Shown here one piece after another: positions 1 to 41,464 of a stretch of 64,000 nt of DNA. The notes beneath the pieces are model-generated. The model made no database searches, was not told the DNA's origin, and saw only the letters and a list, made by a program, of their open reading frames with translations. Position 1 is the first letter of the stretch. Every line of letters begins with the position of its first letter. The position numbers and the translations under genes were made by a program. Source of the DNA: a virus; the IMG/VR virus record IMGVR_UViG_3300002542_000355, positions 11,781-75,780 of that record. One strand, 5' to 3'.

Positions 1-690
1 TCTGTATTGATCGCGTTGATTAATCAAACCATTGGTGCAAACCAAACGATAAATGATAAATTGGATTGATATTTTACTTTTACCAACTTCGCTGTTTCGC
101 AAATGAATTGCAGGAAATACAATGTCATCTGTTACGCCAAATCTAACTTCATGTTCTGGTAATTTTCCAATTGTTTTTTTCAAGTGAGGCATTGTAAACC
201 GAACATCCATATAGTCGCTTGTTACGTTAAAATGTTCCGCTTGTAATTCGCTGAAGTCGTATTTTTCAATTTCTTTTAGGATCGGCAAATTATCCAAAAC
301 ATTATATCTGTCGCTAAATGCTCCGCGAATCAAATGTCTGTCGCCTTCATTATATGTTCTAATAAAAATGTCTGTATCATTTTTTAAAGTTTCAAGTCCT
401 CTTTGAATATTCATTTTAAACACTTCTTGATCTCGTTCAATTTCGTATGTGCTTTTCCCCTGCTTGTCCATCAATTTAGCCATATAAGATGACGGCAAAT
501 CCAATTTAGCACAAAATGTTTGCAATCCCGTTTTAGTAAAGTCAACGATCCCCAAACCATCAATATGTAGGCTGTTATCACGAATTGAAATGTCTTTCGG
601 CTTTTTCATAACATCGACTTTCTTTTGTTCAAGTGCTTCAATTTCTTCCAGTACCTTTTTAAATTTTTCTCCAAGATCGATTTTCTTCAA
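1..690 (-). CDS. DUF932-like protein, runs off the left edge (partial)
   Basis: Not in the ORF track. RBS AAGGAG then TTG at 690; frame open to position 1. Contains the HLRNSEVGKSKINIQFIVYRLVCTNGL motif typical of DUF932 proteins. Confidence 0.75.
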   Translation of the reverse strand, partial: MKKIDLGEKFKKVLEEIEALEQKKVDVMKKPKDISIRDNSLHIDGLGIVDFTKTGLQTFCAKLDLPSSYMAKLMDKQGKSTYEIERDQEVFKMNIQRGLETLKNDTDIFIRTYNEGDRHLIRGAFSDRYNVLDNLPILKEIEKYDFSELQAEHFNVTSDYMDVRFTMPHLKKTIGKLPEHEVRFGVTDDIVFPAIHLRNSEVGKSKISIQFIIYRLVCTNGLINQRDQYR

Positions 691-723
691 TGAAAACCAC
701 TCCTTAATATTATTTACAATTAT

Positions 724-752
724 ATTGTACGTTTAATATTATTTTATGTCAA
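724..752 (-). promoter_or_regulatory. sigmaA-type promoter for the DUF932-like gene
   Basis: TTGACA-17 nt-TACAAT on the minus strand. Confidence 0.75.
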
Positions 753-866
753 TATTATTTTTATATTTTATTTTTTTATACCCATTCTTTTTACACTCCC
801 TTTTATTAAAATTGTCATTTTATTTAACTTAAAAAATAGTATAACAAAATCAATGACCTATTCAAA

Positions 867-1133
867 TCATACATTGTCATAATCTTTAATCGTTACACTC
901 ACATCATTTGCATTATATGCAACTTCTGCTACTCCTCCCCTAACAAAAATAATAGCGTCGAATTTGTTAACTTCTTCTTTTTTGATTTCTGGATCGCCAT
1001 TATCAAAATCAACAATCTTTACATTAACATTTCCTTTATTTTCTTCAATATGTACAACTCCACCATTAACAGCTACAGCCACATATTTCATATTAGTCAT
1101 CCTTTCTTTATTTTTGTTTATCGCCATTTCCAT
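867..1133 (-). CDS. hypothetical protein with an internal tandem repeat
   Basis: ORF; the motif V.GGV..i..n.n.V.V.I.D.DN occurs twice. Confidence 0.7.
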   Translation of the reverse strand: MEMAINKNKERMTNMKYVAVAVNGGVVHIEENKGNVNVKIVDFDNGDPEIKKEEVNKFDAIIFVRGGVAEVAYNANDVSVTIKDYDNV

Positions 1134-1309
1134 TTCTCATCATCAAATACTAAAACTGTACCAAATGGCGTCATGGCATAAACGTCCCATTGACTGTTAT
1201 CATTTCTTTCTAATTTATTTTTTATTTCAAAAACTTTATCAATATTAACAAATCTTTTTTTATATTCTTCACCTGTATTGAAATTCTTTAATATAAATTT
1301 CGTCTTCAT
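1118..1309 (-). CDS. hypothetical protein
   Basis: ORF with RBS GAGGAG, operonic. Confidence 0.7.
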   Translation of the reverse strand: MKTKFILKNFNTGEEYKKRFVNIDKVFEIKNKLERNDNSQWDVYAMTPFGTVLVFDDEKWKWR

Positions 1310-1330
1310 CCAATACTCCTCCTCAATTTT

Positions 1331-1747
1331 TTACGGTCCAACGAGAATAATTCTTAATCCCTTTACGGCCCATTTTCTTTGCTCTTCCGTTGGAGAATAT
1401 AACACTTTACTCAACCAATATGCAGCTTCTTCTCTAGTAAATTTATTAATCCTTTCAGTCATAGCAACAATTTTATTAATGTCATGCATTCCTTTTTGTA
1501 ATCGAAATAGTAACGCTAATTTAACTCCTGCGCTTTGATTTTCATCAAATTCTACATTGAATTCTGTTAATGAGTCTGTTAACAAATAGTGATAATTTTG
1601 CGGAATTCCCAAATCATTCGTTTCTCCTGAAATAATATCTTTTAGTATCGTTCTACATGCTCTATATGTAGCATAATCCATTTCACCCATAATTTCGCTG
1701 TCATAAATCACTCTTAATTTTTTACCTTTAGTCAATAAGCAAATCAT
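1331..1747 (-). CDS. hypothetical protein
   Basis: ORF with RBS, operonic. Confidence 0.75.
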   Translation of the reverse strand: MICLLTKGKKLRVIYDSEIMGEMDYATYRACRTILKDIISGETNDLGIPQNYHYLLTDSLTEFNVEFDENQSAGVKLALLFRLQKGMHDINKIVAMTERINKFTREEAAYWLSKVLYSPTEEQRKWAVKGLRIILVGP

Positions 1748-1761
1748 ATTTTCACTTCCTT

Positions 1762-2022
1762 TTACAATCGTGGCTTAAGTCGCTTTTCAATAATCTCTTC
1801 TTCCGTTTTAATATTATTGCAAACATCATACAAATCATTTACTGCATCATCATAATTATCATAATCGCCAAGCGCACGGACAAGGCGATAGACGCCTTTT
1901 TTGGCTCAATGATCTGGTAACGTTTTTTGTCCCAATTGGTATTCTGCTGTTAAACCTCCGCTTTTCCTTACTCTTTCACAGTATTCCAACGTTTTTTGTT
2001 TCAACTCTGTTAAATTTCGCAT
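1762..2022 (-). pseudogene. small gene interrupted by an in-frame TGA at 1906-1908
   Basis: RBS GGAGGG and ATG at 2022; 87 codons to TAA at 1762 with one internal stop (..LPDH*AKKGVYRLV..). Confidence 0.55.
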
Positions 2023-2046
2023 AATAAATATCCCTCCAATTATTAA

Positions 2047-2772
2047 TTACATACGAGTCCTTGTTGTAAACGGTGGAAAATCACAAATCCAATTTGATAC
2101 ATTTCTTTCTTCTTCTGTCCATACCTCTCTATTAAAGACATCGTTTGTCCCCTCAAGTCGTTTGGGATAAGTATAAAATCCAAAGTCAAACACATTTCGC
2201 GCGACCATTCTAACAGTTTGTCCAGTACTGTTATTCCTAATTAAACCATCATAATAGCCATCTTGTCCATTTTCTCCGCCTGATGGTTTAATAAGTTTAT
2301 ATACTTCAATAATAGAATATTTGTTCTTATACATTTCACGTCTTTGTTTTTCTTCCTCTTGTTCTTCTTTCATTTTGTTATATATATCTTCCGTTTCTTC
2401 GATCCATTTGTCAATAATTGTGATTGCTGGTTTAACATATTCATCTTTAAGAGAATATTTGTAAAATGATTTATACAATAAATCTTTATTTCTTTTTTCT
2501 CCCCATTCGTAGTCTTCATTAAAAGCAACTTCGCATATTTCCCAAATGTTATTTTTTTTCGTCAAAAATTGCATTAATTCTAAAACAGAATTGTGAATAT
2601 AATATCCAACATCATAACTGTTATATGAATTGTCAAAAAGATTATTATTCAGTGTGCCAGCATCCATAATGAAAGGTTTTTGAATATTATCTTTAAGTGA
2701 TTTTAAATGTTCTAACGTTTTGTCAATATCAAATAAAAACAAGTAATCAGGATGTCTAAATTTAACTGTCAT
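2047..2772 (-). CDS. hypothetical phage protein
   Basis: 241-aa ORF with RBS GAGGGG. Confidence 0.8.
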   Translation of the reverse strand: MTVKFRHPDYLFLFDIDKTLEHLKSLKDNIQKPFIMDAGTLNNNLFDNSYNSYDVGYYIHNSVLELMQFLTKKNNIWEICEVAFNEDYEWGEKRNKDLLYKSFYKYSLKDEYVKPAITIIDKWIEETEDIYNKMKEEQEEEKQRREMYKNKYSIIEVYKLIKPSGGENGQDGYYDGLIRNNSTGQTVRMVARNVFDFGFYTYPKRLEGTNDVFNREVWTEEERNVSNWICDFPPFTTRTRM

Positions 2773-2789
2773 TGTTATTACACCCCTCT

Positions 2790-3422
2790 TTATTCAATAA
2801 TACTTTTAAAATAATTATGCAAACCTTCGCGCCCAATAAGCCATTCGCCATCTTCTGTCTGTCTTGCGGCGATCTTTTTTGCTTGACACAGTTTAATAAT
2901 AGTATCGTTTGAAACATTATATTTTTTTGCCGCTTCCGCAACTGTCAAAACTTGACTTAGTGTTGCTCTTTGCTCTTTATGTTCAAAATCATGTTTTGCC
3001 CACAATTTTTTTAATCCATTATGGACTGGTATCGGCAATTCCTCCAATCTGTCATAAACTTGATAGGTATCCCATCCCATCATTTTTGCAACGTCACCAA
3101 CATCGATGAATTCTGTTCCAATCAAATTAATGTAATGGAAAAATTTATTTTGTTTCATTTCCTTATTTTCTTCCTTCCAGTCGGGAAAAAAATCAAAGTT
3201 CGCAAAACTTTTACCTTGCAACGTATCAATTTTCAATGAAAACTTTGAAATCAAATCATCGAATAAAAAATATTCATCTACTATATCAAGATCATTTGTA
3301 TTATTAATATCAATTTTATCTTGTTCGTTTTTAAGAAGTTCAACAATTCTTTCAAAAACTTTGATAAAAACATGTTTTTTCATTGCTTTATCCTCCAAAC
3401 GTTTGAATTTATTGATTAACAA
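2790..3422 (-). CDS. protein with a C-terminal excisionase/MerR-like helix-turn-helix (probable start 3383)
   Basis: C-terminus LTVAEAAKKYNVSNDTIIKLCQAKKIAARQTEDGEWLI fits an HTH_17-like pattern; GGAGG precedes MKKHVF. Confidence 0.65.
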   Translation of the reverse strand: MLINKFKRLEDKAMKKHVFIKVFERIVELLKNEQDKIDINNTNDLDIVDEYFLFDDLISKFSLKIDTLQGKSFANFDFFPDWKEENKEMKQNKFFHYINLIGTEFIDVGDVAKMMGWDTYQVYDRLEELPIPVHNGLKKLWAKHDFEHKEQRATLSQVLTVAEAAKKYNVSNDTIIKLCQAKKIAARQTEDGEWLIGREGLHNYFKSIIE

Positions 3423-3464
3423 TAATTAGTGGATTTTTTAACGCTGTTTTGTATTTCTTTTTTG

Positions 3465-3695
3465 CTATTTCATATTTCTCTTTAGCTTCGTTAAATTCTT
3501 CTTTATATTTTTTAACATCATAGGCTCGCCTATAACCTCTCGCCTATAACCTTGCGTTTCCAAAGCAGATACATAACCATCTAGTTCATATGATCGAACA
3601 ATATCAGAATATTCCATTTTACCATTATTATATGCCGTTATTTCATAATTATCCAAATACACAAAATCAATTGTATATTGTTTCATATTTTCCAC
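3465..3695 (-). CDS. hypothetical protein
   Basis: ORF with RBS. Confidence 0.6.
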   Translation of the reverse strand: MENMKQYTIDFVYLDNYEITAYNNGKMEYSDIVRSYELDGYVSALETQGYRREVIGEPMMLKNIKKNLTKLKRNMK

Positions 3696-3777
3696 CCTTT
3701 CTTATTAAAAGACTTGTTTTATCGACTTTTTAATATTTATGACATGGTGTGTTATATGTAATATGTTTCCATGTATT

Positions 3778-4071
3778 ATATAACTCTCTTGCTTCTTCGA
3801 TAATATTACATTGACTCATTAAATAAGCCATTTCTTCAGCAATATAACCATGTCTTATGAACATACCATCATGCATTTTAGGAAAAATTTCTTTTGCTTT
3901 TTTGAATATATCATAGACTATTTTTTCATATTTTGTACACTGTCTTGTTGTTTTCTTGCTGTTATTTTTGAGGAATAAAGTCTTTTAAATCATAATTAAC
4001 TGGTTTTCCTGAAAGTAGCGATTCTTTTACATGATTTTCGTACTTAACATGAGCAATTGTTTATTTCATTT
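3778..4071 (-). pseudogene. decayed small gene
   Basis: GGAGG RBS followed by ATG AAA TAA; protein-like segments continue in shifted frames (..TKYEKIVYDIFKKAKEIFPKMHDG..EAREL*). Boundaries approximate. Confidence 0.4.
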
Positions 4072-4263
4072 GATATAACCTCCGTTTTTTTATATATATT
4101 TTACTTTTTATTCTACAAAAAGTAAAGCAAATTCAATCCAGTTCCCTTTTTTCGTGCGAACAAAAATTTTGTTATTGATTTTCTTGCCGTAAATAAAGCG
4201 CATTATATATCACCCCTTTGAGAATCTTTGGGGGACTATCCATTTCGAATAATCCCCTATATT

Positions 4264-4848
4264 TTATGCAGAATAAGGAACGTCACTTTCAACAATTTCA
4301 CAATTACTCAAAAGATACAATCCGTCAAAAGGTTTGTAACTTTTTTCAGTTACATAGTGATATTTTCCGTCGGCTGTTAACACTAGATTGATTCCCTTTC
4401 TTTTCGTGTGCCAGTCACCCCACGCTGCTATAATTAAATTTTCGTCTTTATTTCTTCTCATTTCTTCTTCTTTTTTGTTGGCAAGATATTGTTTGTATTG
4501 TTTTTCAAGTGGAGTTACACCAATAGCAATCAAATAATCAGCGTTCCAAAGACTTAACGACTTCATGAGAATATTTTCGATTTCGCTGTTATCTTTATTT
4601 CTAAAGAATTTTTGCCAAAAATGTTTCATTTCGAAAACTGGAATAGCATAGTCGCAATCCTCTTCATAGCAATAATAATCTTGGAATCTTGATCCTTTTG
4701 CTCTTGCATATTTTGAAAGCAATTGTTCTGCAATATCTTTATGGATCATAATTCCGCCATGACTAGCAGTTTCAACAATATAAACACCATCGACAACAGT
4801 TTTGCAATGATGAATATATCCCCATGGAGAAGTTGAAATCTGAATCAT
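4264..4848 (-). CDS. DUF7007-like protein
   Basis: N-terminal SPWG...DGVYIVETASHGGI...YEEDCDYAI motif. Confidence 0.65.
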   Translation of the reverse strand: MIQISTSPWGYIHHCKTVVDGVYIVETASHGGIMIHKDIAEQLLSKYARAKGSRFQDYYCYEEDCDYAIPVFEMKHFWQKFFRNKDNSEIENILMKSLSLWNADYLIAIGVTPLEKQYKQYLANKKEEEMRRNKDENLIIAAWGDWHTKRKGINLVLTADGKYHYVTEKSYKPFDGLYLLSNCEIVESDVPYSA

Positions 4849-4899
4849 TTTATAACACTCCTTTTAATATTATTATTTTAGTTTTTTAATTTTTGTTAT

Positions 4900-5208
4900 T
4901 TAAACTGTCTTGTTATACAATGGTGATTCCCCATATTTCTTGATACATTCTGTTATTTGTTTTTCAAAATCGTCATGACCAATTTTTTGCAAATTTCTTT
5001 TAAAGTCTTCAGTGCAAAGATTTTTGGTTTTACCTTGTGCAACAGAAATGCCTGTCCTTGGCTCGATTAAACAATTAGAATAATAACCATAGAATTTTAC
5101 GTTTTTTACATAGTATAATATGTATCCTTCTACTTTTACTTCGGTTCCAGTACATTCGATCCATTCCAATTTGTCTTCACTTCTTGAAAGGCGATACAAT
5201 TTTTTCAT
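4900..5208 (-). CDS. hypothetical protein
   Basis: ORF, operonic. Confidence 0.7.
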   Translation of the reverse strand: MKKLYRLSRSEDKLEWIECTGTEVKVEGYILYYVKNVKFYGYYSNCLIEPRTGISVAQGKTKNLCTEDFKRNLQKIGHDDFEKQITECIKKYGESPLYNKTV

Positions 5209-5209
5209 T

Positions 5210-5377
5210 TTATTTAACTTCGCGCCATACTAAATCAGGACGAACATCACCAATTATTAAACCATTTTCAGTTTGTAATGAGCAAAACCTAGAATATTTA
5301 TTTTCAATAAATTCTTGAAAAGAATAATTGTGACGTTCAATTACACGACCAGTCTTTAATTCTATTAATTCAAACAT
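5210..5377 (-). CDS. small hypothetical protein (55 aa)
   Basis: Not in the ORF track. RBS AAGGGAG; MFELIELKTGRVIERH..WREVK*; abuts the next gene. Confidence 0.55.
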   Translation of the reverse strand: MFELIELKTGRVIERHNYSFQEFIENKYSRFCSLQTENGLIIGDVRPDLVWREVK

Positions 5378-5453
5378 CTTTATTTGCTCCCTTCTGTTAA
5401 AATGTAGATTTTAACAGGCACATAGTAATTATACTATGTGCCTGTTATGGTTA

Positions 5454-6641
5454 TTAAGCAGTATATTGGTACAAATACCAGTCGCCGTCATTCACAACAA
5501 AATTTCCGCTTCTGTCTTGTTTTACTTGTCGTCTTTCTTGCTTGTCTGTTACAAATTTATCCCTGATTGGTTTTCCTTCTTCAATAGCAATTTTTTGGAT
5601 TGTTACGCTTTTTTCTGTCACTTTCACAACTTGATAAGCTGAAATAACAGCAGTACCAGCAATATTTTTCCTTACAAGGATGTCACCAATGTTAAACGGA
5701 TTTTTGATTTCTTTTTTCTCCTCCTTCCAGTCTTCAGGAATTTTGACTTCTTGAATTTCTGCATAATTATATTTCAATGTCCAATTATTCCATGGAAATT
5801 TTACTTCAATTGTTTTTGAATTTGCTTTTATAACTTCCGCCCAATCATTTTGAATTTTAACTAAATAACCTGATTTAATATCATTTTTTGTATATATTTT
5901 ACCAATCGCGTCTAATTTATTTTGAAAAAATGCCAACTTATCCACTTCATATTCCATTTTATCTAATAAAGATTGTAACCATTCTTGATTATTTTTTTCT
6001 TCTGCTGTTACAATCAACCGTTCATACTTTCTTATATTCGCTTCACATTCTTGAATTCTGTTATTAAGATATGAACGGTCTTGTAATTGTGTCATGCTTG
6101 CGGTTTGATGGGCTGTTATGGCCTTTTGCTTGAAGTATTCACTTTTTCGATATTCTTCAAAACCTTTATGATATCTGTCGTATATGCGTTGTCTTTGTCT
6201 AGCAAAAGCTTCCGATGCAGCATGTCCTGCAATGATCGGTTGTGTGAAAAAAGCAATATCATGATTTCGCAAATACTCATTCATTTCTGCTTGCAACATT
6301 TCAGCACGTTTTTCTGCATTTTCTGCATATTTTTCATAACGTTCGGCACGTCTTTCTGCTCGATCTACTTTCCGTTGCAATTCTTCCGCATATGTAAGCT
6401 TTTCACCCACTTTTCCGCCGTTTGTAAAACCAAACTGTTCAGCCGTTCGAATTGCCATGTAATGACTATTCTTTGAACGTGAAACCCATGCTTGGCGTTG
6501 AGGCGACCACAAGAAGAAACGTTTCAGGTTTGCTTTTTGGTCTGCTGTTAATGCTTGGTATTCGGATTTATTGAAATGTAATTCGATTTTTCCGGTTTCC
6601 TGATTCAACACATATTGTTTTTCTGCTGCTGTTACACTCAT
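5454..6641 (-). CDS. DUF3560-like protein
   Basis: RKVDRAERRAERYEKYAENAEKRA...FFTQPIIAGH motif, characteristic of DUF3560 in mobile-element polyvalent proteins. Confidence 0.75.
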   Translation of the reverse strand: MSVTAAEKQYVLNQETGKIELHFNKSEYQALTADQKANLKRFFLWSPQRQAWVSRSKNSHYMAIRTAEQFGFTNGGKVGEKLTYAEELQRKVDRAERRAERYEKYAENAEKRAEMLQAEMNEYLRNHDIAFFTQPIIAGHAASEAFARQRQRIYDRYHKGFEEYRKSEYFKQKAITAHQTASMTQLQDRSYLNNRIQECEANIRKYERLIVTAEEKNNQEWLQSLLDKMEYEVDKLAFFQNKLDAIGKIYTKNDIKSGYLVKIQNDWAEVIKANSKTIEVKFPWNNWTLKYNYAEIQEVKIPEDWKEEKKEIKNPFNIGDILVRKNIAGTAVISAYQVVKVTEKSVTIQKIAIEEGKPIRDKFVTDKQERRQVKQDRSGNFVVNDGDWYLYQYTA

Positions 6642-6675
6642 TTTTCATTTCCCCTTTATTATTATTTTATTTTAA

Positions 6676-6789
6676 TCAAGCATGTTCAATAAATTCCAGT
6701 AATTCATCGTATGTCATGTTATGAATAGGTTTAAAACGACTTTGAGGAAAGACAAGACGGAAAAGAAAATGCAGAATTTTCATTTTCAT
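6676..6789 (-). CDS. small hypothetical protein (37 aa)
   Basis: RBS AAGGAGG; MKMKILHFLFRLVFPQ..FIEHA*. Confidence 0.4.
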   Translation of the reverse strand: MKMKILHFLFRLVFPQSRFKPIHNMTYDELLEFIEHA

Positions 6790-6849
6790 TTTCAATCCTC
6801 CTTTCGTCTTATTTGAATAGATTATATTATATTTTATGTTGACTCGACA

Positions 6850-7044
6850 AGACATATTTTCTTTTTTCTAATCCTTCTTTATATTCTTCAATCACTCCAA
6901 ACAATTTCAATTGGTTCAATATACTTTTAATCAGCCAAAAATCTTTTGTTAAACCGCTGTTATCAATGATTTCATCAATGGTGACAGGTTTATTTGCACG
7001 TTTCATGAAGTTGATGATGTTTTTTTCAATTGTTGGTCAGTCAT
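6850..7044 (-). pseudogene. frameshifted small wHTH-like gene
   Basis: ATG overlaps the upstream stop (ATGA); one missing A in an A7 run at 7020-7026 would restore LKKNIINFMKRANKPVTIDEII... End approximate. Confidence 0.45.
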
Positions 7045-7286
7045 TGGATCATCACTCCTATTACATAGAATGGTTTTACATTTGGTTTCAATCGTTTCCA
7101 TGTTGTAGTTGGTGAATATGTTTGTTCCCATCCACAAAAATAATCGATAAAATCTTGATCAATATTATTGCTTACTACTTGATCGTCTACAATTTTGATT
7201 TTCCAGCCCTTGTTATTGATAACTTTTTCGATTAGTTTTGATTTACATTTATATCTTTCATGCAATTTGATTATCATTTTTATCAC
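7041..7286 (-). CDS. hypothetical protein
   Basis: ORF with RBS GGAG. Confidence 0.65.
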   Translation of the reverse strand: MIKMIIKLHERYKCKSKLIEKVINNKGWKIKIVDDQVVSNNIDQDFIDYFCGWEQTYSPTTTWKRLKPNVKPFYVIGVMIQ

Positions 7287-7313
7287 TCCTGTTATAATTT
7301 TATTTTCTCTTTT

Positions 7314-7670
7314 TTATGAATAGATTAATTCCCTTCCAGTAATAATACAATATGCCTCTTCTCCTATAATAAATTCTTCATTGTCAATAATAAATTGACC
7401 GTTGATATATTGTAAAATTTTCCCATTTTCGAGTAATAATCCATTTTCTGATAATAATGCTTCATGTTTTTTCTTTAACTTTTCATGTTCAGCTAATGTT
7501 ATATTTGGGACTATTGCCCAAAAAATACAATCATCTTTATAAATTCTTTTTGTTTCTCCTGCCACATTAAAAAAGATGCATTTTTCTGTTATTTTGATAT
7601 TATCTGAATAGACATTCCCAAAAACATGCTTATCGTCTTTAAGTTTGAAATATAAACCGTTTTTTGTCAT
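7314..7670 (-). CDS. hypothetical protein
   Basis: ORF with RBS AAGGAG. Confidence 0.75.
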   Translation of the reverse strand: MTKNGLYFKLKDDKHVFGNVYSDNIKITEKCIFFNVAGETKRIYKDDCIFWAIVPNITLAEHEKLKKKHEALLSENGLLLENGKILQYINGQFIIDNEEFIIGEEAYCIITGRELIYS

Positions 7671-7807
7671 GTTATTTCACTCCTTAATTTATATTATTTT
7701 ATTCCTGCTATCGACTCATAAAGCAAATGTTTACAAGTCCATAGCAGGAATAAAATCCTGCTTTTAACTGGATATGAAAATTAAGCGGATCGGCTCTGCT
7801 TGGATTG

Positions 7808-8056
7808 TTATAAATTCATTTGTCGTTCGTAACGATCAATTGCAGAATCATATACTTTGTCTTCAAATTGTTTGCTGTTAAGATATTCTTCATAGTTAAA
7901 ATTGGGATCATAGGAAATAATGTCAATTCCCATATTATCATAAATAACCATCACTTCAGCATTCGTCAATCCATGCTCTGGTGAATTTATACAACGTTCA
8001 AAAACCACTTCCGCAGGATAGTTTTCAATGTCAATAATAGTTTTATAAAGAATCAT
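7808..8056 (-). CDS. hypothetical protein
   Basis: ORF with RBS GGAGG. Confidence 0.75.
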   Translation of the reverse strand: MILYKTIIDIENYPAEVVFERCINSPEHGLTNAEVMVIYDNMGIDIISYDPNFNYEEYLNSKQFEDKVYDSAIDRYERQMNL

Positions 8057-8127
8057 TTTATATCGCCTCCAAATATAATATTTGATATTATTTAAAATAA
8101 AAAACAGGCAATAAGATGGAATACTTG

Positions 8128-8313
8128 TTATTTGGTTGCTGATTGTTCATTTTGCGCTGTTATAATTTGCATTGCTTCATGTCCGTATAGTACAGACATG
8201 CAATGTTTACATTGAAGCGCAGGAATGTTGTTATTGTTTTTGTTAACTGTTATTTGTATGAATCCTCTATTTCCGCACTCAACGCACAACAAATTGTTAA
8301 TATCTGTAGTCAT
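8128..8313 (-). CDS. YgiT-type zinc-finger protein, putative antitoxin
   Basis: CVEC...CKHC zinc ribbon directly downstream of a DUF4258-like gene. Confidence 0.55.
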   Translation of the reverse strand: MTTDINNLLCVECGNRGFIQITVNKNNNNIPALQCKHCMSVLYGHEAMQIITAQNEQSATK

Positions 8314-8336
8314 GTTATCACCCTTTTTTATTGTTA

Positions 8337-8642
8337 TTAATGATTATATAGTTTATTTATGACTGTAACAACATGTATTGTCCGTGTTTTTTCGTCAATT
8401 ACAAAAACAATATGTTTGTTTTTATCACTCCCATGAATTTTATATGCGTAATATCTCTTTTCTGTTAAACGAATGTCTAATAATTCAATAGGATTCGACA
8501 GCGCATTTATTATATCATCATATGATATTTTACGTTGTTCCATGCGTTGTTCGGCGTGTTCTGTTATGTAAATATTATGTAAATCCTTGGATAGTATCCG
8601 ACAGACCGTAAATAATTGTTCTTGATTAAGTCTTATTGCCAT
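8337..8642 (-). CDS. DUF4258-like (RelE-superfamily) putative toxin/RNase
   Basis: ITEHAEQRMEQRKISYDDIINAL...HIVFVID...VVTV matches the DUF4258 pattern. Confidence 0.65.
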   Translation of the reverse strand: MAIRLNQEQLFTVCRILSKDLHNIYITEHAEQRMEQRKISYDDIINALSNPIELLDIRLTEKRYYAYKIHGSDKNKHIVFVIDEKTRTIHVVTVINKLYNH

Positions 8643-8665
8643 GTTATTCCCCCCGTTCTGTTATT

Positions 8666-8738
8666 CGCAACCTAGACCGCTGTTATATGCGGTCTAACGC
8701 TTCCGGCTTAATGCGCTGTTTAGAGTCGCCGGAACGAC
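8666..8738 (-). ncRNA. pistol self-cleaving ribozyme
   Basis: Minus strand reads AGUCG UUCCGG CGACU CUAACAG CGCA UUAA GCCGGAA GCG UUAGACCGC auauaaca GCGGUCUAG G^U UGCG. P1, the loop pseudoknot (UUCCGG/CCGGAA), P2 (CGCA/UGCG), P3, and the conserved UUAAG, GCG and G^U are all present. Confidence 0.88.
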
Positions 8739-8740
8739 TG

Positions 8741-9073
8741 TTAAACTGTTACACACGTCAAACCTTTTTGCCATATATGGTTAGAAATAGCTTGTAAATT
8801 GTGTTTCATTCCTTCCATCCAGTCATAAATATTATCTTGTTCCGTCCATGTGAATATGATAACTACTTCTCTATTCTCGATATCCAGTTTGTAATTTTTT
8901 ATATAGTGCAAGTCAGGAGATGAAACATCATTGATTAGATTTTCGACATATTCAAATATCAATTTTTTGTTACGTTTAATATATTGTTTTTGCGTTCCTT
9001 CTCCGTCCCAATCGTCGAGCAATCTAGAAATAATGGGACGAACATTGATGATGATTTTTTTAGTCATAGTCAT
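8741..9073 (-). CDS. hypothetical protein, paralogue B of 9917-10252
   Basis: MTMTKKIIINVRPIIS..; near-identical to the upstream copy, including the RBS. Confidence 0.85.
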   Translation of the reverse strand: MTMTKKIIINVRPIISRLLDDWDGEGTQKQYIKRNKKLIFEYVENLINDVSSPDLHYIKNYKLDIENREVVIIFTWTEQDNIYDWMEGMKHNLQAISNHIWQKGLTCVTV

Positions 9074-9094
9074 GTTATCACTCCTTAATCATGC

Positions 9095-9319
9095 TCAATC
9101 ATTCCAAAATACTAGGCAAGAAACGTCGATCCCGTGCGCCTGCGCTTGGGCAAGGATTTCAGCTTTCAACGCGTCATACGTCCCGGTTTCATCACCTTCC
9201 ACCGGCGGCATCTCGGCATACAACTCGATTCCATCCACGTCGGCCTTCATGAAATCGACGCCAACGCCGGGATTTTCCCGGCTTTCTCCAGAACCGTAAT
9301 AAACCAGATGCTTTTCCAT
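9095..9319 (-). CDS. hypothetical protein
   Basis: RBS AAAGGGTG; GC-rich ORF directly downstream of hammerhead 1. Confidence 0.75.
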   Translation of the reverse strand: MEKHLVYYGSGESRENPGVGVDFMKADVDGIELYAEMPPVEGDETGTYDALKAEILAQAQAHGIDVSCLVFWND

Positions 9320-9348
9320 ATCTAATCACCCTTTCATAGTTTTGCGGC

Positions 9349-9426
9349 TTCCCGCGACCGGGACAAGCCCGGTTTCGGCCCGTAGCCAGCGGGCCCAAAG
9401 GCGCCTTCGCGCTCGTCAGGCGGGAA
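9349..9426 (-). ncRNA. type I hammerhead ribozyme 1, with an extra hairpin between core and stem II
   Basis: UUCCCGC CUGACGA [GCGC-GAAG-GCGC CUUUG] GGCCCG-CUGGCUA-CGGGCC GAAAC CGGG-CUUGU-CCCG GUC^ GCGGGAA; predicted cleavage between 9356 and 9355. Confidence 0.85.
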
Positions 9427-9589
9427 TGCGTGTTACAAAAGCAACTGCATATCCGTGTGACTCGACAATCTTTCTTGCTTCCTTTTTTCCGTCCGCCATG
9501 ACTTCGATCATCTTCCCGCAGCGAGTGTATACTTGATGTTTAGCACAACGGAATTTGTATTCGGCTTGTGGTCCAATTCTGTTATACAT
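9416..9589 (-). CDS. hypothetical protein whose stop codon lies in the hammerhead 1 core
   Basis: RBS GGAGGG before ATG at 9589; ends ..TRIPA-TGA. Confidence 0.7.
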   Translation of the reverse strand: MYNRIGPQAEYKFRCAKHQVYTRCGKMIEVMADGKKEARKIVESHGYAVAFVTRIPA

Positions 9590-9647
9590 GGTCAATCCCT
9601 CCAATTCGTAAACGGAAAAACTGATAACTTATGTTCAAGATAAACAT

Positions 9648-9893
9648 TCAAAAACTTGCAATAAAGTCACTAAAAAAATGATGAAATGTGCGAAAAAGTT
9701 CTCCATTTTTGTAAATGTTGTTTTCTACTCTCATGTTTTGCGAAAAACAATAATTGTCATTGAGCATAAGGACATAACTTTCAGCAACGTCTTCCGTCAT
9801 ATTCTCTTTTTGTTCAAGAATGTTGCCGTATCCGTCGTATAATGTGACAGAAACAATTCCGGTATCAATATTTTCGTTAATTTGCATCCACAT
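9648..9893 (-). CDS. hypothetical protein
   Basis: RBS GGGAGG before ATG at 9893 (the ORF track extends to 9950). Confidence 0.65.
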   Translation of the reverse strand: MWMQINENIDTGIVSVTLYDGYGNILEQKENMTEDVAESYVLMLNDNYCFSQNMRVENNIYKNGELFRTFHHFFSDFIASF

Positions 9894-9916
9894 TTGTTTG
9901 TTCCTCCCATATATTT

Positions 9917-10252
9917 TCATTTTACTATGCATGTCAAGCCTTTTTGCCATATATGATCAGAAATGACTTGCAAATTAAGTTTCATTCCTTCGCACCAGTC
10001 ATAAATATTGTCTTGTTCTATCCAAGTGTATGTTATTATCACTTCCCTATTTTCAATGTCTAATTTGTAACTATTGATATATTGTAAATCATAAGGGACC
10101 GAAATGTCATTGACTAGATTTTCAACAAATTCAAGTATCAGCTTTTTGTTACGTCTGATATATTGACTTTGTTTTCCTTCTCCGTCCCAATCGGCGAGAA
10201 GATTTGAAATGATAGGACGAACATTGATGATGATTTTTTTAGTCATAGTCAT
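9917..10252 (-). CDS. hypothetical protein, paralogue A of 8741-9073
   Basis: RBS AAGGAG before ATG at 10252; MTMTKKIIINVRPIIS.. Confidence 0.85.
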   Translation of the reverse strand: MTMTKKIIINVRPIISNLLADWDGEGKQSQYIRRNKKLILEFVENLVNDISVPYDLQYINSYKLDIENREVIITYTWIEQDNIYDWCEGMKLNLQVISDHIWQKGLTCIVK

Positions 10253-10277
10253 GTTATCACTCCTTAATATGTACAAA

Positions 10278-10475
10278 TCAGACGGTATTTCTTCTTCGTT
10301 CTTCCGGTAACTCCGTGAAGGTCAACACGTCTTCGAGTGTTGCGCCGACGGGATCAAAAGTTTCGCCGTCGTCTGTCGTAAACCTGACTACTACGTTACC
10401 TTCAACGGTGTAGTATCCGCTGTAAGTCACGTTGTTAAGACCGACATACTCACCATCGAAGTAACGTTTTGCCAT
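10278..10475 (-). CDS. hypothetical protein
   Basis: RBS GAGGGAG; directly downstream of hammerhead 2. Confidence 0.75.
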   Translation of the reverse strand: MAKRYFDGEYVGLNNVTYSGYYTVEGNVVVRFTTDDGETFDPVGATLEDVLTFTELPEERRRNTV

Positions 10476-10508
10476 TTTTGTTCACTCCCTCATTTGATTT
10501 TGCGGCTT

Positions 10509-10565
10509 CCCGCGACGCCCTTATGGGCGTTTCGACCCGGAGCCACCGGGCCATCGTCAGGCGGG
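10509..10565 (-). ncRNA. type I hammerhead ribozyme 2
   Basis: CCCGC CUGACGA U GGCCCGG-UGGCU-CCGGGUC GAAAC GCCC-AUAA-GGGC GUC^ GCGGG; predicted cleavage between 10514 and 10513. Confidence 0.9.
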
Positions 10566-10853
10566 GTTCCTTCGACGTTCGCGCCGCTCTTGCAGTTTTT
10601 TATACGCCGAAAGAACTTGCGGATACCATTGGTTATTCGGCTCAACGTAAATTCGATCCTTTTCGAAATAATCCGTCATCGTGTCCGTGTTGTTTATTGT
10701 ACGTAGACCCGGAATTTTCGGGAAACTCTCGTAATCCTTCGCGCGAATGATGATCGTTCCTTCCGGCATGTTTCGGGAAGTACACGGCCAGTAATAGGCG
10801 CGATACAGTTTGCCGTCAACCTTTATGCCGTTGTACATGAATTTTACTTGCAT
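10557..10853 (-). CDS. hypothetical protein whose stop codon lies in the hammerhead 2 core
   Basis: RBS AGGAGG; ends ..RRRNPA-TGA. Confidence 0.8.
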   Translation of the reverse strand: MQVKFMYNGIKVDGKLYRAYYWPCTSRNMPEGTIIIRAKDYESFPKIPGLRTINNTDTMTDYFEKDRIYVEPNNQWYPQVLSAYKKLQERRERRRNPA

Positions 10854-10963
10854 TGTTTGTTCCTCCTATGTAATATTTTATTTTTTTGGAGCGTCCAACA
10901 CTCCATAAGGCGCACAACGTGGCTGTTATGCGCCATTTGCAATGTTGGACAATTAAATAAAAT

Positions 10964-11212
10964 CTATTCATGGTTAAAAACTGTTTTTAGAAAATTATTT
11001 TCGATTTTTGTTAGTTTTTCAGTTAAATTTATAACACTGTTATCTTTTTTTAGTTCGTTAATTATATATTTTATTTTTTCATTTATTTCTGCTTCATTCT
11101 TTGCAAATGCTGTTATTGTTGCATTATTTTTTGAGTTATAACCACTTAAACCAATCTTTCCAAAAACATTTTTTTTCTTGATTGTAATATAATCATTTTG
11201 ATAAATAATCAT
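10964..11212 (-). CDS. hypothetical protein
   Basis: RBS AAGGAGG. Confidence 0.7.
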   Translation of the reverse strand: MIIYQNDYITIKKKNVFGKIGLSGYNSKNNATITAFAKNEAEINEKIKYIINELKKDNSVINLTEKLTKIENNFLKTVFNHE

Positions 11213-11234
11213 TTTTGTGCCTCCTTTTTTATTT

Positions 11235-11470
11235 TTATTCCGCTTTTTCTATCCCCTTGCATTATTATTTTTATTCTTCTTAAATAACTTCACTCCACGT
11301 TTTGCCATGTTTAAATAATAACCATTGTTCTAAAGTGTCAAAAAACATATCAAGTTCTTTGTCATAAAAACCTACATTTTTATCATGTTCTAATTTATCC
11401 ATATCTTTTAAAATAATTGTTTTCATTATTATTTCTCCCTTCTTGCAAGGGGACAGAAAAAGCGGAATAA
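11235..11470. repeat. 27-bp inverted repeat (11235-11261 and 11444-11470) flanking a 48-aa ORF
   Basis: ttattccgctttttct(a/g)tccccttgca versus its reverse complement; the single difference is a G-U pair in the minus-strand RNA. Confidence 0.85.
11280..11426 (-). CDS. small hypothetical protein (48 aa), first ORF of the early transcript
   Basis: Not in the ORF track. RBS AAGGGAG; MKTIILKDMDKLEHDKNVGFYDKELDMFF..EVI*. Confidence 0.65.
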   Translation of the reverse strand: MKTIILKDMDKLEHDKNVGFYDKELDMFFDTLEQWLLFKHGKTWSEVI

Positions 11471-11980
11471 TGTGGGGGTTGTGCCGGACTCCTACCGTGC
11501 CTATATGATACGAAATAAGCGTACCCTTTCAAGTCAGATAGCTGACTAGGGGCTTTTTTGACGGTATATCTCGCTCATACAGTCGCCTCCGTGGACTCCC
11601 CAGGTTCCACGAAGTGCTGCCACGCTGTTTCGTGTACGGACAGCCTGTCCACATTTTGACAAGCTGTTGTAACGTGGATCGCCGTTTCCACGCACGCGAA
11701 TAACTCGCGTGTAAATAATATTTTATTTTCAAAGATCAGCCCTTGCGCCGTTCAGCTTGCGCTGTTCAGCGACTTCCCCGGATGCTAGTGCAAGCTATCT
11801 TGCGTTCGCATCCTGCCAAGTAACTATGTAGGGAATTGATTCAGCGTGCTAGACGTTTTCAATGTCTTCCCCTTTGATCGGATTCGTTGCCGTCCGTATC
11901 GCTTGATACGGTATAAGCAGTCCGAGCAGGGAGGGAAAGTGATTGTCGTCGTTGCTGTTGTTCAATTCCTTTTATTGTTT
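11430..11980 (-). ncRNA. long structured 5' leader RNA with boxA-like motifs
   Basis: GC-elevated, hairpin-rich stretch with no credible ORF, between a strong promoter and the first RBS; GAUCUUUGAAAA at 11737-11726 and GACAUUGAAAAC at 11866-11855. Confidence 0.6.
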
Positions 11981-11986
11981 GATTCA

Positions 11987-12015
11987 AATATAGCATGAAA
12001 TCGAAAATAATGCAA
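11987..12015 (-). promoter_or_regulatory. strong sigmaA-type early promoter
   Basis: TTGCAT-17 nt-TATATT with extended -10 TG and an AT-rich upstream region. Confidence 0.75.
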
Positions 12016-12019
12016 TAGG

Positions 12020-12810
12020 TTTTTTTATGTACTATTATATTTTATTTTTAAAATGTTTTTTATTAGTTTGTTGGTGTGTGATAGAATTTATTTATTATGT
12101 TTGTCTGTTGGTGGTATATATATGTTTATGTATGGTGGACATATGTTTATGATGGGTAGACATGTGTTTTTGTGGAGTGGATATGTCTTGCGACTCACGC
12201 GCCATGTTACATATACGATTTTGCCATATATTCCCATTTTCACATTCGGAATGCTTTTGCCATTTATAAATGATATTTACATTTCTTTCCAATCCTTCAT
12301 ACTATTTCTATACAGTCACTATATACTTACTGCTACTCACTTCACCCAATATACTTATACATATATAGGCAGTATTCAGCTATGAGGGGGGATAGTTTAC
12401 ATTCATTTTTACCATTTTTTACCAAAATGTGCCCCTAGCACTTCCATCCCCACACCCTAAAATTTCAATCCACGATTACTCATATTTACCATTTTCTACC
12501 ACATTTTTCCCAAAAAATAATCGTATCACACATCGTAAAAATCCCATTATATCAACAAATTTCATCTCCACCAAATCACCCTAAAACTCCCCATATCACC
12601 ACTATAATATTTCAAAAACCTTGTCACATCAACAAATATACGATTTATCCACTATATCCACAATTATATAACATGCTCGCTACTCCAAATTTTCTTTTAA
12701 TATCAACAATTATTGCTTATTTCATTCTGCAAAAAATCTTTTTTGCGATAACACAAAATCCTACCATCGATCACAATTTTATAATCCCTCTACAAATAAA
12801 AAAACGCCTA
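12020..12810. other. low-complexity, strand-asymmetric non-coding region
   Basis: TG-rich (12050-12200) then G-poor, C/A/T-rich (12390-12810) on the plus strand; no credible RBS-led ORF. Confidence 0.5.
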
Positions 12811-12813
12811 ACA

Positions 12814-13545
12814 TCAGGCGTTTAATCGAGAATTCTTCTTTTTGTTTTCATAGAATTCAATATATTGCTGTTCTGTATTACCACCATAACCATATAAAAT
12901 ATGAAATTCAGTATGACAACCATCGCATAAGGTTACACCGTTAGTGGGATCAGTTCTTCTTTCTATACACCAGTCATAGCCATCTTTATGGTGAGCATGA
13001 AGAATAATACTATCATCAAATTGGTTTGTAATATTGCATATTTTACAGGTATAATTATCATTTTCTAACACGGTTGTTTTCCATTTTTCATATCCACTTT
13101 CATAATTTCTTATTTTTCTTTTCTTTAAATGTAATAAATTATATTTTTGTATTATATAATTTAATAATTCTTTTGGAAATTCAATTTTATCAAACACATT
13201 ATATGGTATATCATAACAAGCTCTATTTTCATAATTAAATTTAATAATTAGAACTGTAGTATATTTTATTTTGTCATTATTAAAATTAATATAATTTTTT
13301 TCTTTAAGATTTATTAATATATTTTTTATTCTATTTTTATTTCTAGTGTCGTCTCCATTAGGTTTCATTACATAAAATTTATTTTTCATTAATTGTGATA
13401 TTGTATCAATATTAATTAAAGTAATATTATCATAAATTATTTTATATCTATACAACAATGAATATAAATATAATTCATTTGAATCTAATTTATATTGTTC
13501 ATCATCCAAAAAAGCTACTACTGGAATAAGTATATTATTGTTCAT
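12814..13545 (-). CDS. winged-helix-like N-terminal domain fused to an HNH endonuclease
   Basis: RBS GGGAGG before ATG at 13545; C-terminal CKIC..LHAHH..NGVTLCDGCH..FH; N-terminus homologous to the adjacent gene. Confidence 0.8.
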   Translation of the reverse strand: MNNNILIPVVAFLDDEQYKLDSNELYLYSLLYRYKIIYDNITLINIDTISQLMKNKFYVMKPNGDDTRNKNRIKNILINLKEKNYINFNNDKIKYTTVLIIKFNYENRACYDIPYNVFDKIEFPKELLNYIIQKYNLLHLKKRKIRNYESGYEKWKTTVLENDNYTCKICNITNQFDDSIILHAHHKDGYDWCIERRTDPTNGVTLCDGCHTEFHILYGYGGNTEQQYIEFYENKKKNSRLNA

Positions 13546-13596
13546 ATTATCCTCCCTTAAAATTAAAATGGAATTTCCTCTTCCCAAGTATTGTTA

Positions 13597-14334
13597 TTAT
13601 TTTTTTTTATTTCCTTTATATCCAAAAGCCAGTTCCCATTCATTATTCACTTCTTTCATATAAAACCTATTCCATTTCTTAATGATTTCCTCACTTGGTC
13701 TAGTATAATATGTATTTTCATATTGCTTTACATCTCCATATTCGTTTTGATAATAATCACCAGAAAACTTCCATATCCTTGGCTTGAATTGATAAGAATT
13801 CATTTTTTCAATTACACTTCTAATTGTGGATTCAGATTTTTTTGCTAGTTTACTCCATTTATAATAAGACAAACTTCTTCCTGTATCTCCAAAGCAATCA
13901 ATATATGCATAAATAAAAAATTCTAATGGATCTTCAAACTGATCAAAAATTGAATAAGTAATATTACTATTATAACCAATAGACGAGTCTACAGATAAAA
14001 ATTCAATTTCAAGTGAATCTGAATTTTTCATTTTTTCATGAATTTCACTAACACCTATTGTTTCAATATATCCTTTATTTTTTAAATTAATTAATAATTG
14101 TTTAATCGTCCTTTTGTTTCTGGATTCATCTCCATTTGCAAATTTGTAACAAAGATTATTAATCATATCAATGCTGGTTCTTGTAATCCAATTATCGGGT
14201 ATTCGATCTCTATATAACCAAGCATATAAGTATAACTCATCAATAGTTAAATGTTTTGATTGATATTTAATAGTATCAATAAAAACACAATTTGGGATAA
14301 TAATATAATTTTCTTCTTTTTTAGCTACAGTCAA
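13597..14334 (-). CDS. putative winged-helix replication initiator / DNA-binding protein
   Basis: RBS GGGGGTG before TTG at 14334; ELYLYAWL..RNKRTIKQLLINLKNKGYI; second HTH-like segment SYYKWSKLAKKSESTIRSVIEKM. Confidence 0.55.
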   Translation of the reverse strand: MTVAKKEENYIIIPNCVFIDTIKYQSKHLTIDELYLYAWLYRDRIPDNWITRTSIDMINNLCYKFANGDESRNKRTIKQLLINLKNKGYIETIGVSEIHEKMKNSDSLEIEFLSVDSSIGYNSNITYSIFDQFEDPLEFFIYAYIDCFGDTGRSLSYYKWSKLAKKSESTIRSVIEKMNSYQFKPRIWKFSGDYYQNEYGDVKQYENTYYTRPSEEIIKKWNRFYMKEVNNEWELAFGYKGNKKK

Positions 14335-39643: not shown

Positions 39644-41464
39644 GTGCTAAGTCGAGACGATTTGCTTATTTTAATTACTGCAACATTAAATACCGGAAAA
39701 TCAATTGGTGAAATTAATGCAGCGATTAAGGGAATAGAAAAGAAAATAAATAAATTAAAATTAAGAGTAGAAGTTCCACAGGATTTTCAAAAGCATGTTG
39801 AAAGTTTTATTAATGCTGCTGAAAAATTGAAAAAAGTTTCTGATGAACAAAAAAGAGTAGTTAGCGAAACAATCAAAGAATTTGAATACGCTGATGGAAC
39901 TACTAAAAAAATAATTCAACGACAGTTGGCTGATGGACAAATAATTACAAGCACAACGGAAAAGATCAAAGAGCAAACTAAAACTGTTCAACAATTAAGT
40001 GATGATGTCGAACGATTAGGATTGGAATATCAAAAGACATATAGAGTTAATAAAGATGGTACACAAATTCTCACTCAAGAAATTAGACAAACAGAAGATT
40101 TAAACCGTCAAATAATAAAATATAATGAACAAGGAAAAGTTACAAGCAATATTATTAAAGATAATATTGGACAAAGAGAAAAATATAATAAAAACTTAGA
40201 ACACACAATTAAATTATATCAACAACAAGCTAGAATTAATGTTGATGATTTAACAAGACGTTTTGGAGAAGATATTGATCATAATGCATTAAGTAAATGG
40301 CTGGATGACGTTAATAGTTTAAACAGAAGTGTACCTGATGTAGATAAACGAATGAAGGAATTATCTACATCTCTTAAAGAAATTGAAACGAATGCAAAAA
40401 GAATTCAAGAAATTAGAAAACGCGGAACCTTAATAGGTCAGTCAAATGATTTAATTGGTAATGAAGTAACTGAAAATCAATTAAAGAATGTATTAGCATT
40501 AAATGAAGCATTTAAAGATAGAGAAATTAGAGAAATATCATTAAATAGTACCACTGGAAAATGGACTGCAACACTTAAAGAAAATGAAAATCAAAATAGA
40601 ATATTAAAAGGTACTATTGATAAAACCACTGGAAGCATTTATTTGCAAGAAAATGCATTGAAACAAGCACATGCTAGTCAACTAGGAGTATTAAAACAAC
40701 TGGAAATTGCTGCCAAAAGAGTCCCCGTCTGGATGCTTGCAATGACAAGTTTTTATGCTCCAATAAGGGGATTAAGAGAAGCCGTTAGAAATATTATTGA
40801 AATCGATACTCAAATGACTGAATTGGCAAGAGTGCTGCCAGATCAAGTTGAGTTATCAGATATTTTGCAAACAAATATTAAATTGGCCAACCAATTAGGA
40901 AAAAGTATTCAGGATATTAATGAAGCGGCAATTGGATTTGCAAGACAGGGATTTGGAGAAGATCAAATTAAATATCTCACAGAGGCTGCTGTATTAGCAG
41001 CGAACGTTTCAGAACTGACAGTTGAAGAATCAATGTCTGCTATGACAGCGGCGATGACAATATTTAATGTTAAAGCTGAAGATTCTGTTAGAATAATTGA
41101 TGCTCTCAACGAAGTAGATAACAACTTCGCAATTACAACCAAGGATTTGGCTTTAGCATTACAACGTGCAGGAAGTACGGCAGTTGCATTTAATGTAACT
41201 TTAGAAGAAATGATTGGTCATGCTACTGCTATTGGTGTTCAAACAAGAGAATCGGGTAGTGTCATTGGGAATGCACTAAAAACGATTTACTCTCGTTTAA
41301 CAACGATGGACTCAAGTATTGATGCCCTCGATTCCATTGGAATTAAAATAAAAGATGCCAGTGGAGAAATGAAGTCAGCTACACAAATTATTTCAGAACT
41401 TCAGGAAAAATGGAATTCGTTATCGGCAGAACAGCAACAGAATATAGCGGTGACACTGGCGGGT
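39644..41464 (+). CDS. tail tape measure protein, exon 1
   Basis: TP901-type TMP core (GFARQG..TRESGSVIGNALKTIYSRL); frame ends at ..TLAG at the intron. Confidence 0.88.

Follow-up and report, generated by a model that had tools for sequence, protein, structure and literature searches.

Two type I hammerheads and a pistol ribozyme as candidate transcript-cutting elements in a gene string of a Paenibacillus provirus

Three self-cleaving ribozymes, two of the type I hammerhead kind (HH1 and HH2) and one pistol, lie within 1.9 kb of the IMG/VR provirus record IMGVR_UViG_3300002542_000355, on the coding strand of what appears to be one prophage transcription unit, where they would cut the polycistronic RNA between genes. 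We consider this reading probable (about 0.7). The DNA analysed was a 64,000-nt window of the 77,676-bp record, and all coordinates refer to this window unless stated otherwise. Transcript cutting is the likeliest role for the three predicted ribozymes; their class membership, structure, position and strand are shown below, and that they cleave in vivo, with consequences for how stable the mRNA is or how well it is translated, is inferred.

The hammerheads were recovered by a sequence pattern and by a covariance model. A generic hammerhead core pattern had two matches, where 0.01 would be expected by chance, running from core to C17 at 10560..10514 (HH1) and 9419..9356 (HH2); inspection by eye shows CUGACGA, GAAA and GUC in both, with a stem I of 5 bp. 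The covariance model, R1, was built from 16 unrelated viral homologues of HH1 and HH2 with the window sequences excluded, and over the whole record it returned HH1 and HH2 and no other match. HH1 has all of the invariant core, namely CUGACGA, GAAA, C17 and the A-U pair that closes it, and one additional U next to A9. Its minimum free energy (MFE) fold is the exact hammerhead secondary structure, stems II and III being loop-closed and stem I open. The R1 score (81.1 bits), the core pattern and this fold bear out what the initial annotation had proposed from the letters, a complete type I hammerhead on the minus strand with a predicted cut at 10514/10513. The 3' half and tail of HH1 (10490-10552, minus strand) also show a weak and partial resemblance (12.7 bits) to the Rfam IS1222 frameshift element, the common stretches being GGUGGCUC..GGG.CGAAA and CGGGAAGCCG; this resemblance is probably due to chance.

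Two exact-pattern scans of IMG/VR yielded more than 200 loci that share the architecture of HH1 and HH2. Since the scan patterns themselves prescribed the core and some of stem I, invariance at those positions is uninformative. Covariation statistics were taken from 80 hammerhead members, with shuffled and slid-partner controls. In these members 93.8% of the cells of the subfamily fold were paired, against 76.9% in shuffles and 30-43% with slid partners, and both sides had changed in 19 of the 22 pairs, against about 10 in shuffles. All three stems are supported by covariation. The pseudoknot between loop II and the 3' tail covaries as well (UGGCU/AGCCG, UGGU/ACCA, GGAUA/UAUCC, GGG/CCC), and through this complementarity the side of stem I makes its tertiary contact with that of stem II in both HH1 and HH2. 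Most members, 106 of 178, have one additional U between A9 and G10.1. By these features HH1 and HH2 are members of a large phage-borne subfamily of type I hammerheads.

The subfamily is present in more than 200 viral contigs. Of 141 Paenibacillaceae genomes that were sampled, 16 contain it and three contain the pistol. The densest array seen is in contig IMGVR_UViG_3300042555_003139 (L184, 696-3340), with six subfamily hammerheads within about 2.7-4 kb. In two other viral contigs a twister-sister ribozyme follows subfamily hammerheads on their downstream side, at a distance of a few tens to hundreds of bases, at 5967-6041 of L094 (plus strand, Rfam 53 bits) and at 1081-1152 of L010 (minus strand, Rfam 46 bits). 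By prediction, these two loci are further mixed-class arrays.

The pistol matched RF02679 over its full length with P1, P2 and P3 all present, and G8671 and U8670 fall in the two linker columns of the model in the RF02679 alignment. Its 7-bp pseudoknot, between the P1 loop (UUCCGGC) and GCCGGAA, is formed in the MFE fold and dominates it. The first A of the consensus linker 'AUAAA' is replaced by C in this copy; the env25 pistol has U at that position. This element is a genuine member of its self-cleaving class with predicted activity, and the earlier assignment of a complete pistol on the minus strand, cut at 8671/8670, was upheld.

HH2 departs from the subfamily in one respect. Every invariant core base is present, but A9 and G10.1 are separated by a 17-nt insertion made up of a hairpin and a CUUUG linker, and the core is not contiguous with stem II. 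Of the earlier claim of a complete hammerhead, the coordinates, the predicted cut at 9356/9355 and the core bases therefore stand, while the word complete does not. Because all core bases are there, we count HH2 as hammerhead-derived; it may be slower, regulated or inactive.

On the minus strand the order is the 98-aa open reading frame (ORF), HH1, the 65-aa, 111-aa, 100-aa and 57-aa ORFs, HH2, the 74-aa and 110-aa ORFs, the pistol, the gene for a DUF4258 protein and a 61-aa ORF (Table 1). That each ribozyme sits at the end of one gene and 28-40 nt before the next start codon had been noted from the sequence, and the measured distances from cut to ATG agree (38 nt for HH1, 36 nt for HH2 and 28 nt for the pistol). 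The stop codons of the genes preceding the hammerheads, 10559-10557 and 9418-9416, fall inside the CUGA of the cores, and that at 8743-8741 comes just before the pistol. Both ORFs that run into a hammerhead end in CCC-GCC-UGA (Pro-Ala-stop), which is the 5' strand of stem I followed by the core UGA. All ORFs from ~11426 to 5454 are tightly strung on the minus strand, and our scan for minus-strand terminator-like sites between 12429 and ~5450 found none. Read from the DNA alone, the ribozymes thus lie on the sense strand between ORFs of an apparently terminator-free unit, and the ORF string is consistent with one long transcript. A promoter at ~12015-11987 looked plausible by eye and was dropped, as it failed the criteria of the scan.

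Table 1. Features of the ribozyme locus, in window coordinates and in the order of the minus strand.
Feature	Position	Strand	Details
Terminator-like hairpin and T-run	12802..12823	-	End of the preceding minus-strand unit
Weaker terminator-like hairpin	12441-12429	-	5-bp stem
98-aa ORF upstream of HH1	10557..10853	-	GC 47%; weak phrog_18160, phrog_18717 (unknown function)
HH1, type I hammerhead	10501..10565	-	R1 81.1 bits, E 1.5e-19
HH1 stem I	10565-10561 with 10513-10509	-	
HH1 core CUGACGA	10560-10554	-	Extra U at 10553
HH1 stem II	10552-10546 with 10540-10534	-	Loop II UGGCU, 10545-10541
HH1 GAAA	10533-10530	-	
HH1 stem III	10530-10525 with 10520-10515	-	
HH1 C17	10514	-	Predicted cut 10514/10513
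HH1 tail AGCCG	10507-10503	-	Pseudoknot with loop II
65-aa ORF	10278..10475	-	GC 48%; starts 38 nt past HH1 cut
111-aa ORF, paralogue A	9917..10252	-	AT-rich; 78% identical to paralogue B; no family match
100-aa ORF	9648..9950	-	No family match
57-aa ORF upstream of HH2	9416..9589	-	GC 45%; ends Pro-Ala-stop
HH2, type I hammerhead variant	9343..9424	-	R1 47.9 bits, E 1.2e-10
HH2 stem I	9424-9420 with 9355-9351	-	
HH2 core CUGACGA	9419-9413	-	
HH2 insertion, hairpin GCGC-GAAG-GCGC	9412-9401	-	
HH2 insertion, linker CUUUG	9400-9396	-	
HH2 stem II	9395-9390 with 9382-9377	-	Loop CUGGCUA, 9389-9383
HH2 GAAA	9376-9373	-	
HH2 stem III	9373-9368 with 9362-9357	-	
HH2 C17	9356	-	Predicted cut 9356/9355; tail same as HH1 tail
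74-aa ORF	9095..9319	-	GC 52%; starts 36 nt past HH2 cut
110-aa ORF, paralogue B	8741..9073	-	Stop codon 2 nt ahead of pistol
Pistol ribozyme	8666..8739	-	Rfam RF02679, 63.8 bits (gathering 34.5), model 1-68 of 68
101-aa DUF4258 protein	8337..8642	-	Pfam PF14076, E 3.5e-11; ATG 28 nt past pistol cut
61-aa CxxC...CxxC protein after DUF4258	8128..8313	-	Weak zinc-ribbon match, below cut-off

If the transcript is cut as proposed, the ribozymes would fold co-transcriptionally and cleave the polycistronic RNA between genes, and cuts at 10514/10513, 9356/9355 and 8671/8670 would release two internal pieces, 1158 and 685 nt long. Each of the predicted cuts lies near the ribozyme's own 3' edge. Nearly the whole structured ribozyme, together with the stop codon, would therefore stay on the upstream mRNA, whose 3' end would be capped by stable hairpins and terminate in a 2',3'-cyclic phosphate, and the downstream mRNA would begin with a 5'-OH and a 28-38-nt leader that contains the ribosome-binding site.

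The first 12 nt of the HH1 and HH2 downstream products (GCGG-GAAG-CCGC) can refold as a hairpin of -7.4 kcal/mol in which nucleotide 1 is already paired. Across the subfamily, 71% of the downstream products have a hairpin of at least 4 bp with the first base paired, against 16% of shuffles, and none of 500 shuffles reached so high a value. The terminal hairpin and the pairing of stem I and the pseudoknot are mutually exclusive; hence the hairpin could drive product release, make the cut irreversible and shield the new 5' end. This signal follows in part from the pseudoknot's own sequence needs, and we regard the role of the hairpin as suggestive. The downstream product of the pistol cut has no 5' structure (0 kcal/mol).

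The core stop codons recur in the subfamily: in 69 of 172 members the longest open frame arriving from upstream ends at the core UGA, 26 and 19 being the counts for the two remaining frames. A terminating ribosome would thus often stand on the 5' half of the ribozyme, and folding could in this way be coupled to translation.

Several points weigh against the reading of three ribozymes that cut one transcript. The hammerhead models of Rfam 15 gave no match to HH1 or HH2 in 8 kb around the locus at E<=10 and none in an 86-nt slice at the same threshold, RF00163 gave no hammerhead match on the whole provirus record, and none of about 60 subfamily members in 18 loci reached an Rfam hammerhead gathering score. 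The check by Rfam models that the initial annotation had suggested therefore recovers the pistol (RF02679, 63.8 bits) and neither hammerhead. HH2 adds difficulties of its own. The A9/G10.1 junction, where its insertion lies, is a site of stacking and metal-ion binding in hammerheads of solved structure. In the MFE fold of HH2, A13 and A14 of the core GAAA are base-paired with two U from the CUUUG linker, which would make this an inactive conformer, and in energy the fold does not improve on shuffles (z = -0.1). The flanked genes are without known function, Pfam, PHROGs and the ESM Atlas having yielded only DUF4258 after the pistol, and for that reason they offer no regulatory logic to check. 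Lastly, RNase J1 is said, in work ascribed to Collins et al. 2007, to degrade the 5'-OH product of the glmS ribozyme in Bacillota; cleavage could by this route lower, not preserve, downstream expression. In particular, the pistol product, with no 5' structure and a toxin-like DUF4258 gene, might be destabilised, not preserved.

Given the R1 matches and the covariation, we rejected the silence of Rfam as an argument against the hammerheads, and we read it as a gap in the Rfam 15 models that says nothing against the fold. Since these models do not detect the subfamily, annotation pipelines will miss it.

The alternative that survives best concerns HH2 alone, which would be a dead or crippled relic whose insertion abolishes or badly slows catalysis, leaving an operon that is cut twice and not three times. 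We put this at somewhat less than even odds. The insertion stands at a structurally sensitive junction, the predicted fold engages A13 and A14 with two linker U, and the variant is rare. Apart from the window it was found in four viral contigs, L034, L053 and L107, which form one lineage, and L094. A looser insertion pattern run on viral and metagenome contigs returned, among the matches listed, no true case beyond these four. Matches to a fixed-hairpin pattern in genome contigs, 31 in number, were rejected as insertion variants, all being chance matches in coding DNA. Against a relic speaks the persistence of the variant in at least three lineages, the window copy included, in which stem III was wholly exchanged yet kept its pairing and a C-G pair of stem II became U-A, likewise with compensation, while every core base, stem I and the tail that forms the pseudoknot are intact. 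HH1 and the L034 hammerhead, moreover, are nearly identical but for the insertion.

HH2 and its four relatives may instead represent a new structural type of hammerhead that still works, in which the GNRA-type hairpin and the CUUUG linker, branching out between A9 and G10.1, would make domain II a three-way junction. This proposal is tentative and, in our view, rather doubtful. The inserted stem is invariant across the variants, and because it never varies it has no covariation support. Since pairing between the linker and the catalytic GAAA is possible, the insertion could be a built-in off-switch, or else a factor docking site, which would make cleavage conditional.

A further possibility is that the ribozymes are mainly passengers or junctions of mobile GC-rich gene cassettes, cleavage being incidental or mildly useful, and that conserved hammerhead sequences mark the borders of these cassettes, which would move between phages, and perhaps promote them by homologous recombination. 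The four ORFs that touch HH1 and HH2 have a GC content of 45-52%, against 20-34% for their neighbours, and each GC-rich module precedes a copy of the 110-aa paralogue with an identical ribosome-binding region. Homologues of two of these ORFs occur in other hammerhead-bearing viral contigs, that of the 65-aa protein in L053 (84% identical) and those of the 74-aa protein in L094, L042 and L058, and there they sit elsewhere relative to the ribozyme. From the GC contrast and these displaced homologues, the hammerhead-plus-neighbour modules look like imports from GC-richer phages. Variation in the flanked genes was also described by Perreault et al. 2011 (PMC3088659).

The contigs L010, L034, L053 and L107 have a common upstream gene end and differ in the hammerhead interior (canonical in L010, of the insertion type in the others), and the same twister-sister follows downstream in L010 and L053 and is not shared by L034 and L107. 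The pattern points to recombination inside the ribozymes or at their position. Strong purifying selection on cores, stems and pseudoknot across hundreds of copies argues nonetheless that catalysis itself is selected, beyond sequence homology. We think it unlikely that the ribozymes are chiefly cassette borders, and such a role is in any case compatible with transcript cutting and not exclusive of it.

Cleavage might instead serve down-regulation, the 5'-OH mRNAs being exposed to RNase J1 as with glmS, so that the toxin-like DUF4258 gene would be kept low. The host belongs to the Bacillota (Paenibacillus), attack of RNase J1 on the 5'-OH glmS product is established knowledge, and the downstream product of the pistol is the one that is unstructured at its 5' end and encodes the DUF4258 protein. 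Both hammerhead products, on the other hand, bear a conserved hairpin that begins exactly at the 5' end, and such a hairpin protects Bacillus mRNA from 5' exonucleolytic attack. A constitutive ribozyme would also give a fixed effect and not a regulated one. We hold this purpose to be improbable for the locus.

Least credible, and very improbable, is that HH1 and HH2 act as a pair to release a 1158-nt four-gene RNA which is circularised or whose flanks are joined by splicing, a possibility raised by Perreault et al. 2011 (PMC3088659) and suited by the identical stem I strands and the identical 16 nt after the cut, with which the 5' end of the excised RNA would perfectly substitute for the lost tail of HH2, and by 5'-OH and 2',3'-cyclic phosphate ends fit for hammerhead ligation or RtcB; yet spliced or circular products of tandem prophage hammerheads were sought in the same study and none were found, the identical stem I is family-wide and explained by the fold, and the 5'-terminal hairpin should disfavour re-association.

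The provirus has a GC content of 31.6%, far below that of the flanking host DNA. Its end (L002; ~75800-77676 of the record) encodes a 385-aa tyrosine integrase beside the GC-rich start of the host ppiB gene (L002 101-1258 and 1546-1977, both minus strand). The ppiB protein is 90% identical to that of Paenibacillus cisolokensis, and its best matches are all from Paenibacillus. On this adjoining gene we place the predicted host in Paenibacillus (Bacillota).

Among the neighbouring genes, the 61-aa CxxC protein may be the partner of the DUF4258 protein in a toxin-antitoxin-like pair. The 110-aa paralogue had no relatives in IMG/VR and the 98-aa protein distant ones only. No DNA similar to the locus was found in the phage database save the hammerhead itself in the Salisaeta phage SSIP-1. 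Between the promoter region and the first small ORF of the operon lies a noncoding, GC-rich stretch of ~500 nt (11430-11990, minus strand; up to 63% GC), which had no Rfam match at E<=10 and no similar DNA in the phage database or the fetched loci; possibly it specifies a structured leader RNA of a type not yet described.

Elsewhere in the window, a group I intron (73 bits with RF00028, whose cut-off is 50) occupies 41455-41707 on the plus strand, between the long plus-strand ORFs 39644-41497 and 41783-45652 of the tail region. The whole-window Rfam 15 scan at gathering cut-offs was not exhaustive, as it overlooked this intron, which a narrow scan recovered. Rescans of 1-6100 and 6000-14000 with laxer filters gave no ribozyme beyond those noted here. 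The remainder of the provirus record was likewise covered by the Rfam scan.

The closest known systems are the prophage arrays of Perreault et al. 2011 (PLoS Comput Biol, PMC3088659), in which multiple hammerheads flank genes or short gene blocks. Those authors proposed that long phage transcripts are cut into gene-length mRNAs, showed cleavage in vitro of ~2-kb native polycistronic constructs from three tandem arrays, and for one of these, the triple hammerhead of A. tumefaciens, showed it also in vivo in E. coli. As in the present locus, a coding-strand stretch of ~2 kb contains several hammerheads, set between small phage genes whose identity varies, and the type I members have a pseudoknot joining stems I and II. 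The present array differs in mixing in a pistol, in belonging to a subfamily that has an extra U after A9 and is undetected by Rfam 15, and in that one copy has a 17-nt insertion where the extra U of the subfamily sits. Three of the earlier arrays were shown to cleave, whereas activity here is predicted.

By the account of its discovery in PMC4604425, the pistol class was found by Weinberg et al. in 2015 through the clustering of ribozyme genes with each other, those of hammerheads and twisters among them, and with phage genes. Harris et al. 2015 (PMC4604425) describe pistols as prevalent in Firmicutes and near phage genes. The pistol of the provirus is like its class (RF02679; PMC4604425) in P1, P2 and P3, the pseudoknot, the G-U site and the Firmicutes and phage setting, with no material difference, and the proximity to other self-cleaving ribozymes by which the class was discovered is true of this locus as well.

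The initial annotation had held that the phage processes its early mRNA autocatalytically into separately regulated mini-mRNAs, and had known of no functional description of a mixed-class array. Its first part is supported in part, by genuine members of two ribozyme classes on the coding strand of one apparent unit in a Bacillota host; cleavage in vivo, the early timing and the separate regulation of the products are conjectural. The novelty was overstated, being anticipated by Perreault et al. 2011 and by Weinberg et al. 2015 as described in PMC4604425. A 2019 review (PMC6765202) restates the polycistron-processing idea and still calls the role of phage ribozymes hypothetical. Hundreds of such sites are known, and the present locus does not change the picture. 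It does offer a compact test case, with two ribozyme classes in 1.9 kb, identical-ended hammerheads, a pair with and without the insertion, stop codons in the cores and a culturable host genus, and the terminal hairpin suggests how a cut could become irreversible and a new 5' end protected.

Salisaeta icosahedral phage 1 (SSIP-1, JN880423) has two subfamily hammerheads that are unannotated in its record (R1 58 and 50 bits; L366 1497-1562 and 1918-1985, minus strand, corresponding to JN880423 ~10220-10705), and these flank one small gene, ORF 17, on the coding strand. SSIP-1 is cultured; it differs from the provirus in host phylum and phage type, and it has no insertion variant.

The early mRNAs of T7 and SP82 are comparable by analogy only. 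There, too, intergenic cuts give gene-sized mRNAs with structured 3' ends, but host RNase III leaves a 5'-phosphate and a 3'-OH, whereas the autocatalytic cuts predicted here would leave a 5'-OH and a 2',3'-cyclic phosphate. In the hammerhead structure of Zhan et al. 2024 (PMC11300833) a pseudoknot of the helix II loop fixes the active fold, which cleaves at 16 per min in 1 mM Mg2+. The partner of the loop in that structure is an extra stem-loop on helix I, and in the present subfamily it is a single-stranded tail 3' of stem I.

Measured against Perreault et al. 2011, the discovery of the pistol, the twister-sister loci L094 and L010, the L184 array and SSIP-1, a phage operon with an array of mixed ribozyme classes belongs to a kind of arrangement already known, described since 2011-2015. 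What the locus adds is mildly new: a hammerhead subfamily undetected by Rfam 15, the rare insertion between A9 and G10.1, the recurrent stop codons in the core and the conserved hairpin at the 5' end of the downstream product.

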